Origin: Methanomassiliicoccales archaeon
Lineage (GTDB): Archaea; Thermoplasmatota; Thermoplasmata; Methanomassiliicoccales; UBA472
Reading direction: 5' to 3'
Assembly (NCBI GenBank): GCA_026394375.1
Contig: JAPKYJ010000013.1
Coordinates: 2,089-66,088, forward strand
Length of the DNA: 64,000 nt
Of this stretch, positions 4,204 through 8,856 are shown one piece after another; positions within the stretch are counted from its first letter, which is position 1; each line of letters begins with the position of its first letter. Both the position numbers and the translations under genes were made by a program. The notes beneath the pieces were generated by a model. The model worked only from the letters and a program-made list of their open reading frames with translations. It did not search any database and was not told the origin of the DNA.

Positions 4204-4601
4204 AGATCATCGGCTACGTCTGCTCACACGCCGGCTACGCAGCAGCGGACCTGGCCGGAGAAGAGCGACTGCAATATTCCCCGGACATAATTCTGATCCG
4301 ACTGCCATGTGCCGGTCGGATCGACGTCGTACATTTGCTCAAGGCGTTCCGCGAAGGGGCCGACATGCTCTTCGTGGCGGGATGCCTGGAAGGAAACTGC
4401 CACCATCACTATGGCAATCACGAAGCCAGGAAGCGCGTCGATCAGGCCAAGAGCATCCTGGATGCATTGGGCATGGATGGACGGAGGATAGAGATGTTCT
4501 ACCTTGCCTCCAACCAGGGCTGGAAGTTCAAGGAGATCGCGGATGAGATGATGAGAAGGGCGAGCGAGCTAGGGTCGAACCCACTGGAGGCGAAGGGATG
4601 A
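4200..4601 (+). CDS. mvhD: MvhD/FlpD-like [2Fe-2S] electron-transfer protein
   Basis: Internal ATG at 4200 within track ORF 3867..4601, overlapping the previous stop (ATGA). Sequence MKIIGYVCSHAGY...LPCAGRIDVVHLLKAF..GADMLFVAGCLEGNCHHHYGN is the typical MvhD pattern. Confidence 0.85.
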   Translation: MKIIGYVCSHAGYAAADLAGEERLQYSPDIILIRLPCAGRIDVVHLLKAFREGADMLFVAGCLEGNCHHHYGNHEARKRVDQAKSILDALGMDGRRIEMFYLASNQGWKFKEIADEMMRRASELGSNPLEAKG

Positions 4602-5293
4602 TAATCGGAGAACAGAAGCCGCTCCAGGAGATCTGCGCCATGCTCGAGGGACATCAGCGCATCCTAGTGGCAGGCTGTCGTTCCTGCGTGGCCATTTGCC
4701 TCGCGGGCGGAGAGAAGGAGGTGGGCATCTTGGCGGAGAGCTTGCGCCTGCACTCCGACCTCCGAGGAAGGAATTGGGAGGTGACCGAGTTCACCACGGA
4801 GAGGCAATGCGAGAAAGAGTGGGTGCGTGAGCTCTCCGACCTGGTGGCCAAGAGCGACGCGGTCGTCTCCATCGCTTGCGGGGTTGGGGCGCAAACCATC
4901 CAGGCGCTTTTCCCGGAAGTGAGGGTCCTTCCCGGGCTTAACACTTCGAACATGGGTGCGCCCGAAGAACCGGGCGTTTTCATGGAGAAATGCGGGGGCT
5001 GCGGTGACTGCGTTCTGCATCTGACCGGAGGGATATGTCCCATCGTCCGCTGCGCCAAGAGCCTGCTCAACGGTCCCTGCGGAGGGAGCCAGAACGGCAA
5101 GTGCGAGATCGGTCACGATACGCCCTGTGCCTGGGAGGAGATCTACCACTCGCTCGAGCGCCTTGATCGATTGGACCTGCTGGAGGAGCTGATACCTCCG
5201 AAGAACTGGATGCCCAGCCGTAGCGGCGGACCGAGGAGGATCATCAGGCCGGAGGCGGTCCTGACCAGGGAAGAGAAGGAGATGAGAGGATGA
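4598..5293 (+). CDS. metV: MetV, methylene-THF reductase-associated Cys-rich subunit
   Basis: CGGCGDCVLHLTGGICPIVRCAKSLLNGPCGGSQNGKCE resembles the MTHFR C-terminal-like/MetV family. It lies directly upstream of metF and is coupled to it by an ATGA overlap. Confidence 0.8.
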   Translation: MIIGEQKPLQEICAMLEGHQRILVAGCRSCVAICLAGGEKEVGILAESLRLHSDLRGRNWEVTEFTTERQCEKEWVRELSDLVAKSDAVVSIACGVGAQTIQALFPEVRVLPGLNTSNMGAPEEPGVFMEKCGGCGDCVLHLTGGICPIVRCAKSLLNGPCGGSQNGKCEIGHDTPCAWEEIYHSLERLDRLDLLEELIPPKNWMPSRSGGPRRIIRPEAVLTREEKEMRG

Positions 5294-6210
5294 AGGCGGG
5301 CAGCAACTTGGAGAAGGTGCTTTGCGATGGGAGGTTCGCCGTCACGGCGGAGATCGGGCCGCCCAAGTCCGCCAGCGCCGAGAGCGTCCGTCGACACGCG
5401 AAGGAGATGCGAGGTTGTGCGGACGCCTTCAATCTCACCGACAACCAGATCGCCATGGCCAGGATGTCGTCCATCGCCGCTGCGGTCGTTCTCATCGAGG
5501 AAGGCCTGGAACCGGTCATCCAGATGACCTGTCGGGACAGGAACCGGATCGCCATGCAATCCGATATCCTGGGGGCATCGGCGTTGGGCATTAAGAACGT
5601 GCTTTGCATCAGCGGCGACCATCAAACCTTCGGTAACCAGAAGGAAGCGAAGAACGTGTACGACGTCGACTCCATCCAGGAACTGATGATCCTGCGCAAG
5701 ATGAGGGACGAAGGCCGAGTGTGGAGCGACGAGGAACTGGAAGTAGCTCCAAGACTTTTCCTGGGCGCGGCGGCCAATCCTTTTGCCGATCCATTCGAGT
5801 TCCGGGTCGCCAGGCTGGCAAAGAAGGTGAGGGCGGGAGCGGATTTCGTGCAGACGCAGAGCATCTTCGACATGGAACGCTTCGAAAGGTGGATGGAGCT
5901 CGTTCGGGTCAGGGGGCTGCATGAGGATGTGCATATACTGGCGGGCATCCTGCCGCTGAAATCGCACAGGGTGGCGCTCTACATGAAGAACAAGGTGTCA
6001 GGCATGATCGTTCCCGATGCCATAGTCGAGCGCATGAAGGCGGCCAAGGACCCGAAGGAGGAAGGCATCCGCATCTGCGTAGAGCAGATCGAGCATCTGC
6101 GGAGCATCGAAGGAGTGCATGGCGTGCACATCATGGCGCCCTTGTGGGAAGAGAAGGTGCCAGAGATCGTCCGCAGAGCGAGATTGCGTCCAGATGCTCG
6201 AATCGAGTGA
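5290..6210 (+). CDS. metF: 5,10-methylenetetrahydrofolate reductase
   Basis: 306 aa. Motifs VTAEIGPPK, FNLTDNQ, QMTCRDRNR, ISGDH and FVQTQSIFD are characteristic of MetF-type MTHFR. Confidence 0.9.
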   Translation: MKAGSNLEKVLCDGRFAVTAEIGPPKSASAESVRRHAKEMRGCADAFNLTDNQIAMARMSSIAAAVVLIEEGLEPVIQMTCRDRNRIAMQSDILGASALGIKNVLCISGDHQTFGNQKEAKNVYDVDSIQELMILRKMRDEGRVWSDEELEVAPRLFLGAAANPFADPFEFRVARLAKKVRAGADFVQTQSIFDMERFERWMELVRVRGLHEDVHILAGILPLKSHRVALYMKNKVSGMIVPDAIVERMKAAKDPKEEGIRICVEQIEHLRSIEGVHGVHIMAPLWEEKVPEIVRRARLRPDARIE

Positions 6211-6375
6211 GAGGTATGTGCACCGAGGCTTCAATGAAGACATGTTCTATCCTAGACGGTCTGGAATCATCACTGGTATACGGTCAGGGAGCGAGTCCTT
6301 CGAGGGGGGGCTCCTGGCGCATGAGAAAGTACTTATCTACCTGGAAACGAGGACATAGCAGGACAAGTGAGATCG

Positions 6376-6606
6376 ATGTCGCAGGTCAACCTTGATTGCC
6401 GGGGACAGAACTGCCCCGTTCCTTTGGTGGAAGTGAGGAAGGCGCTGAAGAAAGCGGCCGTCGGGGATGTCATTGAGGTCGTCGGAACACATCCCTCATC
6501 AAAGAAAGAGATACCGATGGCAGTGGACGCGCTGGAGCAGCAGTTGCTGGAAGTGAAGGACAACGGTCCGGAGTGGATCATCCGCATCAAGAAGGTGAAG
6601 GGGTGA
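6376..6606 (+). CDS. tusA: TusA/SirA-like sulfur carrier protein
   Basis: LDCRGQNCPVPLVEVRKALKK carries the CPxP active-site motif. The size (76-79 aa) fits the family. I prefer ATG 6376 over the track GTG 6367. Confidence 0.8.
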   Translation: MSQVNLDCRGQNCPVPLVEVRKALKKAAVGDVIEVVGTHPSSKKEIPMAVDALEQQLLEVKDNGPEWIIRIKKVKG

Positions 6607-6610
6607 TAGA

Positions 6611-7030
6611 GTGACCCAGAAGACGACCATAGTCGTGCACAGCGGCGACATGGACAAGGTGTTCAGCGCATTCATCATCGCCAACGGCTCCATGGCCATG
6701 GGCATGGAGGCTACGCTCTACTTCACTTTCTGGGGTCTCAATCGTCTCAAGAAGGGAGGATTGGACAAAGGCCCCCTCTCCCAGATGAACATGCTTGGCC
6801 TGGGAAGAAGGATGGTCAGGCAGCGGATGGAGAAGGCGAACGTGGCCAAGTTGGAGCAGATGGTCAAGGACTTCAAGGAGCTAGGGGGCAAGATCATCGC
6901 CTGTGAGATGACCATGGAGATCATGGGGATCAAGAAGGAGGACCTCCGGCTGGATTGGATCGATGAGTTCGGTGCCGTGGGCACATACGTGAACGAAGCG
7001 AGGAAATCGGACATCACGCTATTCATCTGA
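6611..7030 (+). CDS. DsrE/DsrF-like family protein (COG2210-type)
   Basis: 139 aa. TIVVHSGDMDKVFSAFIIANG...ATLYFTFWGL...KIIACEMTMEIMG shows the typical DsrE-like fold signature. The GTG start is 4 nt after the tusA stop. Confidence 0.7.
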   Translation: MTQKTTIVVHSGDMDKVFSAFIIANGSMAMGMEATLYFTFWGLNRLKKGGLDKGPLSQMNMLGLGRRMVRQRMEKANVAKLEQMVKDFKELGGKIIACEMTMEIMGIKKEDLRLDWIDEFGAVGTYVNEARKSDITLFI

Positions 7031-7031
7031 G

Positions 7032-8204
7032 GTGTTCTCATTGCCCGACAGGACGATCTACATGGACAACGCCGCCTCCACCAGGCTGGACGGGCGCGTG
7101 CTGGAGGCGATGAAGCCCTATTACTTCGATTCCTATGCGGTGGCGACATCGGAGTTCGGGCATTCCATGGGCATCGAGGCCAAGGAGACGCTGGAAGCAG
7201 CGCGAGTGAAGCTGGCCGAGGCGCTCAAAGCCTCTCCCGAGGAGGTGCTGCTCACTTCCGGGGATACGGAATCAAGCAACCTGGCCCTCAAAGGAGTGAC
7301 CAATGCCCTTGCGGGCAAGAAGGGCAAGCACATCGTCGTATCGAAGATCGAGGACTTTCCTGTTCTGAACAGCGCCAAGGCGTTGGAGAGGTTGGGCTAC
7401 AAGGTCACCTATCTGGGAGTGGACAAAGAGGGCTTCCTGGACCTGGCGGAGCTGGAGCGCTCCATAACCAAGGAAACCGTCCTGGTCTCGATCCAGCACG
7501 CCAACCAGGAGATCGGGACCGTGCAGGACATCGAGGCGATCGGGAAGATCTGCCATGATAGAGGGGCGCTATTCCATACGGACGCCACCCATACGCTCAC
7601 CCGCATTCCATTGGACATGGGCCGAATGGCGGTGGACCTGGCCACGATAACCGCCCACACCATCCACGGTCCAAAAGGGATCGGGGCGCTCTACGTCCGC
7701 AAGGGCACTCCTCTGATGAAATGGATGGACGGCGGGTTCCAGGAGTTCAATCTGCGGGCGGGACTGGAGAACATCCCGGGAGCGATGGGATTCGCCAAAG
7801 CCATAGAACTGGTGACCGAAGAGGAGAACGAGCGCCTCCGCGCCATCCGCGACTCGCTCATAGACAGCTTGCTGAAGCAGGTGCCTCGGACGACCCTGAA
7901 CGGCTCTCGGACCAGGAGGATCCCTCAGAACGCCAACATCACCTTCCACCGCGTGGAGGGCGAGTCGATAACCCTCCATTTGGACATGCGAGGCATCGAG
8001 GTCTCCACCGGCTCGGCCTGCTTCTCCCGGTCGTTGGAGGCCAGCCACGTGATCATGGGCATCGGTGGGGACCACGAGCGGGCGCACGGGTCCATACGAT
8101 ATTCACTGGGCCGATTCAACGACATTAGCGAGGTGCCAGAGGTCGTGAAGGCGATGACGGACATCATCGGAAGATTGCGGAGCATCAGCCCGCTGAAGGA
8201 TTGA
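7032..8204 (+). CDS. iscS: IscS/NifS-like protein (class V aminotransferase fold) lacking the canonical PLP-binding lysine
   Basis: Contains [28 protein letters not shown], and the catalytic-loop [16 protein letters not shown]. The expected SGHK(I)YGPKG reads [19 protein letters not shown] here, with a Thr codon at 7659-7661. Confidence 0.85.
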   Translation: [390 protein letters not shown]

Positions 8205-8217
8205 GGAGGTTCAGAGC

Positions 8218-8856
8218 ATGAAGTTCCCGTACGGAGAGAAGGTTCTGGAGCATTTCAAGAACCCCAAGAACGTGGGCAAGATAGAGGACGCTGACGGAAA
8301 GGCCATCGTGGGAAGCCCGGCATGCGGAGACATGGTGGCGGTGTACCTGAAGATCGATCCGAACGAGAACCGGATCGTGGACGCGAAGTTCGAATCCTAT
8401 GGATGCGCTTCGAACATAGCCACCGGCTCGATCATCACCGAGCTGGCCAAAGGGAAGACCATAGAAGAGGCCAAGAAGATAAGCTGGCAACAGGCCTCGG
8501 AGGCATTGGGCGGGCTGCCGAAGATAAAGGCGCACTGCTCAGTGCTGGCCGTGGAAGGCCTCCGCGAGGCCATCACCAATTACGAGGAGAAGCACGGTCT
8601 GATCAAGGAGCGAGAGCCGACCACGGCGGAGCTGGTGAAGCGCCGCCTCAAGAACGTGATGAATCCGCTCACTGGTCTGGACATCGTTCGCGGCAACCTC
8701 ATCAAGGAAGTGAAGGTGGAGGAGGGGGTGGTCAAGATCTCGGTGGACCTGCCTGAGAGCCACATCTTCGCCAGCAACATCAAGGAAGAGGTCAACGAGC
8801 GCATCGAGACCCTGTGGGACGTGAAGAAGGTGGAGATCAGCTTCAATCCTGCTTAG
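8218..8856 (+). CDS. iscU: IscU/NifU-N Fe-S scaffold fused to a DUF59 (MIP18/SufT-like) domain
   Basis: The N-terminal part has all scaffold ligands (GSPACGDMV, SYGCASNIA, KAHCSVLA). The C-terminal ~85 aa (NPLTGLDIVRGNLIKEVKVEEGVVKISVDL...) looks like a DUF59 domain. Confidence 0.85.
   Translation: MKFPYGEKVLEHFKNPKNVGKIEDADGKAIVGSPACGDMVAVYLKIDPNENRIVDAKFESYGCASNIATGSIITELAKGKTIEEAKKISWQQASEALGGLPKIKAHCSVLAVEGLREAITNYEEKHGLIKEREPTTAELVKRRLKNVMNPLTGLDIVRGNLIKEVKVEEGVVKISVDLPESHIFASNIKEEVNERIETLWDVKKVEISFNPA

Follow-up and report, generated by a model that had tools for sequence, protein, structure and literature searches.

A lysine-less IscS-like protein between sulfur carriers and a fused IscU in a Methanomassiliicoccales archaeon: a candidate docking platform for sulfur relay

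What is left for an IscS-like protein to do once the lysine that binds pyridoxal phosphate (PLP) is gone? The locus described here, in a 64,000-nucleotide stretch of DNA from a Methanomassiliicoccales archaeon (the window, to whose positions all coordinates refer), poses this question through a lysine-less protein of the IscS/NifS fold, which we call IscS*. It thereby touches on a wider problem, the supply of sulfur to Fe-S clusters in strict anaerobes, especially methanogens, without or beside cysteine desulfurases. Pfam Aminotran_5 (PF00266) matches residues 9-369 of IscS* with an E-value of 2.1e-72, and the AF2 model (pLDDT 87, pTM 0.88) is matched by Foldseek to NFS1, IscS and NifS at TM-scores of 0.88-0.91; Pfam, AF2 and Foldseek thus agree on a fold-type I, class V aminotransferase fold. 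Against the NCBIfam equivalog models used for the desulfurase test (NifS TIGR03402, IscS TIGR02006 and NF010611), the best score of IscS* is 430.9 bits where the cut-off is 530.75, and it stays below all desulfurase equivalog cut-offs; with 534.8 bits, the canonical paralogue encoded in this genome exceeds one of them. Judged by sequence, IscS* has the fold of the type I cysteine desulfurases, lacks their lysine and belongs to the type represented by IscS1 (MA0808) of Methanosarcina acetivorans.

The missing lysine, pointed out in an earlier note on this DNA, is real. In phmmer alignments, Thr210 stands opposite the Schiff-base lysine of the canonical cysteine desulfurase chains listed from the PDB, and aligning IscS* by MAFFT with the IscS of E. 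coli (MG1655 record) gives the same column, K206; phmmer also pairs it with Asp199 of Archaeoglobus fulgidus IscS2 (4eb5) and with the lysine of its D199K mutant (4r5f). The E. coli segment given in the note agrees with the E. coli IscS sequence. Lysine is found in this column in none of 201 homologues of at least 67% identity, 194 of which have Thr, three Leu, three Ile and one Ser; this count and the 67-78% identity kept across two domains rule out a sequencing error or a chance event.

Five replacements, K206 to T, H104 to D, N155 to Q, Q183 to H and T243 to L (E. coli numbering), are fixed in 90-100% of the 201 sequences. The PLP-stacking His104, present in all seven canonical sequences compared, is Asp in 200 family members; Asn155 is Gln in all 201, Gln183 is His in 199, and Thr243, which is contributed by the other subunit and contacts the cofactor phosphate, is Leu in 180, the canonical sequences having Asn, Gln and Thr at these three columns. 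The family does not retain the full set of PLP-contact residues. Four of these changes (H104 to D108, N155 to Q159, Q183 to H187 and T243 to L245 in IscS*) had escaped the earlier note. IscS* itself bears the complete family signature, D104, Q155, H183, T206, H208 and F329 together with a YAVATSEF insert-like motif, and no compensating lysine was gained among the 22 family-specific signature positions; the lysine of the GPK motif, considered for this part, was rejected, being found in canonical enzymes as well. As many as 33% of the columns of the family alignment are at least 98% conserved, and the pocket columns are more conserved than random column sets, only 374 of 10,000 resamples reaching the pocket mean. 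On this alignment evidence, the lysine loss belongs to a remodelling of the PLP pocket that is fixed in the IscS* family, and we infer that PLP-dependent cysteine desulfuration by IscS* is not possible. As D180, T76 and H205 are retained, S203 is mostly Ser (else Ala or Thr), and A. fulgidus IscS binds pyridoxamine phosphate (PMP) or PLP non-covalently, IscS* may still hold a cofactor in this manner.

The mobile cysteine loop has been kept. Its cysteine, Cys330 in a loop of the SSGSAC type, occurs in all 201 sequences; the earlier note had remarked that this cysteine and other fold motifs are retained. C328, D180 and R354 (E. coli numbering) are invariant across the same family, as are 9 of the 12 loop positions 322-333, among them a family-specific Phe at position 329 (201/201).

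A. fulgidus IscS, cited in the earlier note, belongs to a different lysine-less family, and the true orthologue is MA0808. A. fulgidus IscS2 (AF0564; PDB 4EB5, 4EB7, 4HVK, 4R5F) is the best PDB sequence match of IscS* (E 3.5e-96) and resembles it in the absence of the Schiff-base lysine, the retained Cys loop, the fold (TM about 0.9), the IscU gene that follows and a sulfur-carrier gene ahead, in A. fulgidus that of a 94-aa DsrE-like protein. It differs in its partner, a plain IscU without DUF59, in being about 42-50% identical, and in its signature of K to D, H205 to N and Q183 to A, with the H104, T243 and N155-region contacts largely kept, consistent with bound PMP. This D/N/A pattern at K206, H205 and Q183 is common to all 119 natural A. 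fulgidus-type sequences; IscS* instead has T206, H205 and H183, and D104 and L243 besides. Of the note's statement that the A. fulgidus protein is PLP-free and inactive, the inactivity stands, as the protein forms no PLP-lysine aldimine, whereas PMP is present in the wild-type crystal and PLP was built into the model of the IscS-IscU complex (PMC8918507). Clustered at 50%, the IscS* family is left with a single representative, and the scores drop abruptly from 569 to 429 bits. FastTree sets the A. fulgidus-type and IscS1-type families apart, but the hint of independent lysine losses was dropped, since an approximately unbiased (AU) test fails to reject one clade: the tree with all lysine-less sequences in a single clade exceeds the free quick tree by 3.0 in lnL (p-AU 0.52).

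For MA0808, Deere et al. (2020; PMC7585200) remarked on the absent lysine and proposed a role like that of the A. fulgidus protein, so that the idea of an inactive IscS of this kind is already in print for the orthologue. According to the printed alignment of that paper, MA0808 has the same motifs as IscS* at every diagnostic site, including H(A/S)NQEIG, and its neighbours are those of the window: the DrsE-superfamily protein MA0809, the SirA-like MA0810 and the long, ~24-kDa IscU1 MA0807, with MA0807-MA0810 listed in the legend of Fig. S1 (PMC7585200). The two proteins differ in host, Methanomassiliicoccales in our case, and are about 67-70% identical, an estimate taken from the orthologues of Methanolobus and Methanomethylovorans. 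In FastTree and in an IQ-TREE quick tree, both computed without MA0808, IscS* lies in one clade with Methanosarcinales orthologues, Methanolobus halotolerans included, at a support of 99. Produced alone in E. coli, recombinant M. acetivorans IscS1 ended up in inclusion bodies (PMC7585200). The other pocket changes, the role of the carrier genes and the cross-domain spread are not discussed by Deere et al. (2020; PMC7585200), and our search of the open-access literature yielded no further paper on the cassette.

What, then, are the partners of IscS*? The genes for a TusA-type and a DsrE2-type carrier lie directly upstream and that for an IscU fused to DUF59 directly downstream (Table 1), the whole cassette spanning 6376-8856 and matching the TusA(SirA)-DsrE-IscS-long IscU neighbourhood of the IscS1 type.

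Table 1. Genes and diagnostic codons of the cassette, in window positions
Feature	Position	Strand	Remarks
TusA-type sulfur carrier	6376..6606	+	Pfam TusA 4.3e-21; CPxP motif with acceptor Cys
Soluble DsrE2/DrsE_2-type sulfur carrier	6611..7030	+	139 aa; Pfam DrsE_2 3.9e-36
IscS*	7032..8204	+	GTG start, 390 aa; orthologue of M. acetivorans IscS1 (MA0808)
Asp108 codon GAC	7353..7355	+	column of PLP-stacking His, E. coli H104
Gln159 codon CAG	7506..7508	+	E. coli N155 column
His187 codon CAT	7590..7592	+	E. coli Q183 column
Thr210 codon ACC	7659..7661	+	Schiff-base Lys column, E. coli K206
Leu245 codon CTG	7764..7766	+	E. coli T243 column, cofactor-phosphate contact from other subunit
Cys330 codon TGC	8019..8021	+	loop STGSACFS; E. 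coli C328; persulfide or cluster-ligand cysteine
IscU fused to C-terminal DUF59 (FeS_assembly_P)	8218..8856	+	212 aa; Pfam NifU_N 1e-43, FeS_assembly_P 8.2e-13

The TusA reading frame is open from a GTG at 6367, with the ATG at 6376 as its likely start; the top NCBIfam match of the second carrier is 'sulfur carrier protein DsrE2', below its cut-off; and a GGAGG motif stands 8 nt 5' of the ATG of the IscU::DUF59 gene. The order TusA-DsrE2-IscS*-IscU::DUF59 recurs in 72 of 80 loci of archaea and bacteria, at 67-78% identity, in Methanomassiliicoccales, Methanosarcinales, Methanobacteriaceae, Altiarchaeales, Dehalococcoidia, Anaerolineae, Syntrophales, Nitrospirota, Clostridia and others. The relay cysteines, at least six between carriers and scaffold, are all conserved: Cys16 of TusA in 73 of 74 cassette sequences, Cys98 of DsrE2 (motif IIACEMT, its single conserved cysteine) in 75 of 75, and Cys36, Cys63 and Cys107 of IscU::DUF59, together with His106, at 97-100%. 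As a control, 20 lysine-bearing IscS-IscU loci from the host's taxonomic order were examined, and not one has a TusA or DsrE gene within 3 kb; the HMMs used do pick up unrelated TusA and DsrE genes. Other lysine-less proteins often have no carriers beside them. The separate A. fulgidus-type family offers a parallel that favours the relay, with TusA and/or DsrE directly upstream in five of seven loci, A. fulgidus included; in a third lysine-less group (K to L or V; Thermoplasmata, Nitrososphaerales, Korarchaeota-like), IscU::DUF59 adjoins in 5/5 loci and TusA/DsrE in 1/5. A rule by which lysine loss always goes with TusA/DsrE was rejected on this last count, which also means that a feed by carriers is no general requirement of a lysine-less IscS.

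The structures of E. coli IscS (PDB 3LVJ, 3LVL; Shi et al., 2010) offer a model for contacts within the cassette, the protein having the same fold as IscS* and the same flexible loop, whose Cys328 can reach TusA Cys19 as well as the cysteines of IscU. The central salt bridges of its complex with TusA join R27 and R31 of TusA to E49 and D52 of IscS (PMC2854127). Arg24 of the cassette TusA, equivalent to R27, is Arg in 74/74 sequences, and position 28, equivalent to R31, is Arg or Lys in 74/74; on the other side, the E49 column of the IscS* family holds Glu or Asp in 200/201 and the D52 column Asp or Glu in 157/201. The docking-helix residues E49, D52 and R55 are conserved in the cassette IscS*, while the canonical paralogues vary at IscS positions 45 and 49. 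Unlike IscS*, the E. coli protein works with PLP, making a persulfide that it hands to TusA; with PLP chemistry gone from IscS*, any sulfur that does move between TusA and IscS* must come from TusA. In E. coli, TusA and IscU are never on IscS simultaneously (PMC2854127), which, by analogy, would count against a relay of four proteins.

On balance, we consider IscS* probably not a desulfurase but the docking platform of a four-protein sulfur-relay line, a reading based on the retained IscS fold and mobile Cys loop, on the constant presence of the IscU::DUF59 partner, and on the loss of the Schiff-base lysine and four more pocket residues, whose replacements hardly vary among about 200 homologues from archaea and bacteria. 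Sulfane sulfur would be carried as a persulfide (or thiosulfonate) on Cys98 of DsrE2 and Cys16 of TusA, and TusA would sit on helix alpha2 of the IscS* dimer, in the way that E. coli TusA binds its IscS. The sulfur would then flow opposite to E. coli, from TusA to the loop cysteine Cys330, a direction we assign purely by inference, and the Cys330 loop could swing to IscU to deliver sulfur or, like that of A. fulgidus IscS, to ligate a nascent [2Fe-2S] cluster. The ordinary routes would be left to the canonical IscS-IscU pair, the SufS-like protein and SufB. The earlier note's proposal of a non-catalytic scaffold partner or persulfide acceptor appears well founded in this light, given the at least four further pocket losses, the invariant Cys loop, the IscU, TusA and DsrE2 neighbours and the NCBIfam score below cut-off.

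Does the cell have another desulfurase, as the earlier note asked? The same genome encodes an intact type I IscS adjoining an IscU, plus an intact SufS-like protein and SufB, and a lysine-bearing desulfurase, type I or SufS-like, is present in all genomes checked. Five genomes of a sister genus have no type I IscS-like gene but the lysine-less copy, and no IscU other than the fused one occurs in one of the five (99% complete); these genomes, without a canonical type I IscS, still have a SufS-like protein with intact lysine. The lysine-less copy is thus not redundant. Little, then, speaks for a decaying pseudo-enzyme or a sequencing artefact without function, to which we give next to no credence: the loss of the catalytic lysine, taken alone, might suggest it, but the frame is intact, identity and gene order are held across archaea and bacteria, a third of the columns are nearly invariant, and some complete genomes have no other type I IscS-like gene, so that the conservation data already refute it. 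As at least one lysine-bearing class V desulfurase occurs in every genome examined, and E. coli IscS loads TusA (PMC2854127), cysteine-derived sulfur could still enter via TusA. A desulfurase elsewhere would then charge TusA and DsrE2, with IscS* as a downstream hub to IscU, or the flow would be reversed, from IscU and IscS* to the synthesis of thio-cofactors. We regard this as quite unlikely, considering that the canonical IscS has its own IscU next door, that the sister genus does without any canonical type I IscS and that no gene of the cassette points to a thio-cofactor enzyme.

More weight, though still short of making it likely, is due to a pure scaffold or ligand role, in which IscS* stabilises IscU and Cys330 is the fourth ligand of a [2Fe-2S] cluster built with free sulfide, while the carriers TusA and DsrE2 supply some other acceptor, thiolated cofactors for example, or buffer sulfane sulfur. 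This would follow the precedent of A. fulgidus IscS, and it would suit the four of five K to L/V loci that have IscU::DUF59 but no adjacent TusA/DsrE, the two of seven A. fulgidus-type loci without carriers, and the ability of methanogens to make Fe-S clusters from sulfide, as a review passage has it (Liu et al., 2010, cited in PMC12192291). It leaves the strict four-gene order in two domains, the lack of carriers beside lysine-bearing loci of the host's taxonomic order and the docking residues kept on both partners to be accounted for, and these favour the relay. Highly improbable, in our estimate, is an IscS* that is still an enzyme or ligand binder, its pocket (Asp104, Gln155, His183, His205, Thr206, His208, Asp180) holding pyridoxal or pyridoxamine phosphate non-covalently, or else a metal, iron for instance, or a small molecule of another kind, for some non-classical chemistry. 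The near-invariance of the replaced residues (D 200/201, Q 201/201, H 199/201), the excess of pocket conservation over random columns and the PMP held without lysine by A. fulgidus IscS (PMC8918507) would agree with this; the family has lost the His that stacks on the ring and the Thr that binds the phosphate (Thr243), however, and the conservation may reflect the packing of an empty or collapsed pocket.

The known system closest in outline is the minimal system MIS, MisS-MisU, which, according to reviews, is defined with a cysteine desulfurase (Garcia et al., 2022, via PMC13066941 and PMC12192291). The cassette shares with it the two-gene core of an IscS-like and an IscU-like protein in anaerobic archaea and bacteria, described in these reviews without chaperones or carriers, and differs in lacking the desulfurase lysine and in adding TusA, DsrE2 and the DUF59 fusion. 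It is conceivable, if rather doubtful, that the lysine-less IscS-like proteins form one ancient, PLP-independent branch of MIS, in which all that is left of the desulfurase fold is a dimeric docking platform with a swinging cysteine, loaded in the IscS1 type by TusA/DsrE2 and not through the cleavage of cysteine. Were this so, anaerobes would have a third way, independent of cysteine, of bringing sulfur into Fe-S assembly. The branch may comprise the IscS1 and A. fulgidus types together with the K to L/V lineages of Thermoplasmata, Nitrososphaerales, Korarchaeota and Bathyarchaeia, and the invariant new pocket residues Asp, Gln, His, Thr and His may make up the site of a new ligand, for example iron.

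The current picture of minimal MIS takes an active desulfurase for granted, and hundreds of genes such as the one described here carry the label 'cysteine desulfurase' without the residues for that reaction. The cassette is a genetically testable candidate for a different route, being present in the tractable M. acetivorans as well as in Dehalococcoidia, Syntrophales and many other anaerobes.

What can be said of the protein itself? It matches Aminotran_5 (Pfam, 2.1e-72) and, as the earlier note had claimed, retains the catalytic-loop cysteine (STGSACFS, Cys330) and lacks the Schiff-base lysine. Thr210 lies opposite that lysine in the canonical cysteine desulfurase PDB chains shown by phmmer, and is aligned to Asp199 of Archaeoglobus fulgidus IscS2 (4eb5) and to the mutant lysine of the D199K chain 4r5f; alignment with the E. 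coli (MG1655 record) and A. fulgidus proteins, proposed as a check, confirmed the column, MAFFT placing Thr210 with K206. Its best score against the curated NCBIfam desulfurase models is 430.9 (NifS, cut-off 530.75), and it reaches none of their cut-offs, while the canonical, lysine-bearing paralogue of the same genome passes at 534.8. Its AF2 model (pLDDT 87.2, pTM 0.88), in which weak-confidence stretches are limited to active-site loops 36-44, 234-245 and 331-333, reaches a TM of ~0.9 to NFS1, IscS and A. fulgidus IscS2 in Foldseek; as modelled, the desulfurase fold is intact.

Cassette genes, lysine-column codon and upstream gene pair in the window
Feature	Position	Strand	Remarks
metV-metF	4598-6210		directly upstream of the cassette
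TusA	6376-6606	+	first cassette gene
DsrE2-like	6611-7030	+	second cassette gene
Lysine-less IscS-like ORF	7032..8204	+	GTG start, abuts upstream gene's stop; 390 aa
Thr210 codon ACC	7659-7661	+	Schiff-base Lys column
IscU::DUF59	8218-8856	+	fourth cassette gene

A protein search gave 120 homologues at ≥69% identity, mostly Methanomassiliicoccales by name, with Methermicoccus and bacteria besides. By genome scan, 432 species genomes contain relatives; the 80 best, at 67-78% identity, come from archaea (Methanomassiliicoccales, Methanolobus, Methanomethylovorans, Methanobacteriaceae, Altiarchaeales, a Halobacteria-labelled MAG) and bacteria (Dehalococcoidia, Anaerolineae, Syntrophales, Nitrospirota, Thermotogae, Clostridia). 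Across 201 aligned family sequences, in E. coli numbering, K206 is T in 194, L in 3, I in 3, S in 1 and K in 0; H104 has become D (200), N155 Q (201), Q183 H (199), T243 L (180), Y208 H (201), T/S329 F (201) and D79 S (194), and C328, D180 and R354 (201 each), H205 (197) and T76 (193) are retained. None of the 22 positions setting the family apart from canonical sequences has gained a lysine. The mean conservation of the pocket columns was matched by 374 of 10,000 resamples of random column sets. Thus, judged from these alignments, the fixed replacements and the conservation of the pocket columns above random sets indicate a PLP pocket that was remodelled and then held fixed, and is not in decay.

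The cassette genes are separated by 4, 1 and 13 nt, and their order, TusA-DsrE2-IscS-IscU::DUF59, recurs in 72 of 80 related loci; the exceptions include two cut at a contig end, one rearranged, one with DsrE2 only, and three, all Anaerolineae, in which the IscS-like gene stands alone. In these three (L013, L014, L053) the protein is 71-73% identical, and TusA, DsrE2 and IscU are absent from the fetched flanks. Conserved cysteines occur in TusA (Cys16, 73/74), DsrE2 (Cys98, 75/75) and IscU (Cys36, Cys63 and Cys107, 97-100%); the DUF59 (FeS_assembly_P) domain fused to the window IscU is cysteine-less. The controls were 20 loci of other Methanomassiliicoccales whose IscS bears the lysine, taken with 3-kb flanks. 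IscU adjoins 19 of them, and an HMM search found TusA or DsrE near none, with models built from the cassette alone that still detected unrelated TusA and DsrE genes. The metV-metF pair also precedes the cassette in several Methanomassiliicoccales loci (L011, L015, L018, L033, L046, L088) and not in bacterial ones, and is a lineage-specific neighbourhood outside the cassette proper.

In the E. coli IscS-TusA complex, TusA Cys19 lies ~4 Å from IscS Cys328, the interface centres on the salt-bridge chain R27(TusA)-E49(IscS)-R31(TusA)-D52(IscS), and the IscS loop can also reach IscU, >16 Å away (Shi et al., 2010, PMC2854127). Cassette TusA carries R at the R27 equivalent and R/K at that of R31 (74/74 each); the family has E/D at position 49 in 200/201 sequences, D/E at 52 in 157/201, and R55 in 200/201. 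In canonical archaeal paralogues, unlike the family, position 49 is N, S or G and position 45 is polar. This pattern supports direct TusA docking, although something other than docking may account for the conservation of the TusA arginines.

The earlier note had also asked whether another intact desulfurase exists in the genome (1.73 Mb, 99.8% complete, one SufB). It does: a different contig carries a canonical IscS (SAHKFHGPKG, EHH, STGSAC) beside plain IscU, and a divergent SufS-like gene (SVHKM) is present. At this locus (G000:C17:43892-46741; L001, L091) the IscS-IscU pair is divergent from the adjoining type II SufS-like gene, whose SVHK is intact. Two further adjoining TusA/DsrE2-like pairs lie outside the cassette (G000:C31:120646-120852 region, L092 1291-2166; G000:C25, L094 1089-1704), so the carrier pair recurs as a module in this organism. 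All five other cassette carriers examined (two Methanobacteriaceae MAGs, Altiarchaeales SM1, Methanolobus halotolerans and a complete Dehalococcoidales genome) likewise have a lysine-bearing type I IscS. Within the order, orthologues occur in ~39 of 201 sampled genomes, mostly in the window's own family, and are missing from both other genomes of its genus. Five genomes of a sister genus, 94-99% complete, have no type I IscS-like gene but the lysine-less one, which is therefore not a redundant relic; one of the five has no IscU other than the fused one. That genus still has a SufS-like protein whose SMHKM motif is intact.

The window gene has a published counterpart, IscS1 (MA0808) of Methanosarcina acetivorans, which is stated to lack PLP-binding residues including the essential lysine, and for which its authors suggested a role like that of the A. 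fulgidus protein; Fig. S1 of the same paper lists MA0807 as IscU1 (24 kDa), MA0809 as DrsE superfamily and MA0810 as SirA-like (Deere et al., 2020, PMC7585200). As the motifs printed in its Fig. S2 match those of the window protein, the two are orthologues. The searchable literature yielded no further paper on the cassette genes, and recent reviews still present the minimal ISC system with a cysteine desulfurase (PMC13066941, PMC12192291). The protein belongs to an already known but uncharacterised kind.

A. fulgidus IscS2 is inactive for want of a PLP-Lys aldimine, but its description in the earlier note as PLP-free does not hold, since the wild-type crystal contains PMP and PLP was built into the model of the IscS-IscU D35A complex (PMC8918507). 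In 119 natural sequences of this type (Archaeoglobi, Hadesarchaea, Bathyarchaeia) the fixed pattern, K to D, H205 to N and Q183 to A with H104, T76, D180 and T243 retained, differs from that of the window family and fits non-covalent cofactor binding; the partner is plain IscU instead of IscU::DUF59. Gene orders are DsrE-like, IscS2, IscU in A. fulgidus; TusA, IscS, IscU in Ferroglobus, a Bathyarchaeota chromosome and a JGI contig; and TusA, DsrE2, IscS, IscU in a Hadesarchaeon; two related Bathyarchaeales lack carriers. In A. fulgidus (AE000782.1; L136 4707-6616), a 94-aa DsrE/DrsE_2-family gene lies 9 nt before the crystallised IscS2, a neighbour for which we found no discussion in the accessible literature.

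Lysine-less proteins extend further: 18 of the 150 nearest representatives of 50%-identity clusters lack the residue, as do 119 of 120 proteins listed by a search seeded with P0147 (L 81, V 35), which show several distinct conserved patterns and bear the names Thermoplasmata, Nitrososphaerales, Korarchaeota and Bathyarchaeota. These type I desulfurase-like proteins (P0147, P0391-P0509), with Leu/Val in place of the lysine, make up a large radiation in archaea; in the subgroup THQDQSHLHTC, which retains H104, Q183, H205 and T243, little has been lost save the lysine. Locus L171 (88-4143) reads DsrE2, unknown gene, long IscU, TusA and two tandem class V genes, both without lysine (SAHTMYGPKG, SSNLIHGPKG), the second only with the SAC cysteine loop. 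The window family and the A. fulgidus type stand apart in FastTree, but its deep forks are unsupported, and a single clade of all lysine-less lineages in the trees scores lnL 3.0 above the free quick tree and is not rejected (AU test, p 0.52), so that one ancient loss and several losses are both possible.

Where, then, would the sulfur come from? The protein could be a pure scaffold, with sulfur taken from sulfide. Consistent with this, IscU::DUF59 (209-223 aa) adjoins 5/5 loci of the Leu/Val lineages and TusA/DsrE only 1/5, which limits a relay; as the fusion is also the constant neighbour in the window family, the constant partner of lysine-less IscS is the scaffold, often a DUF59 fusion, and not the carriers. 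Against it stands the carrier pair, which by gene neighbourhood is peculiar to the window family and most of the A. fulgidus type. Sulfur might instead derive from cysteine through another desulfurase, since no genome checked was free of every lysine-bearing one, or the remodelled pocket might hold a new ligand.

The protein keeps its fold, Cys loop and IscU pairing, and the operon, its cysteines and the TusA-docking residues are conserved. With the remodelled pocket, these features favour the earlier reading of a non-catalytic scaffold partner or persulfide acceptor, and desulfurase activity is probably absent. Sulfur would then reach the cassette on TusA and DsrE2, and Cys330 would hand it to IscU or else ligate the cluster.
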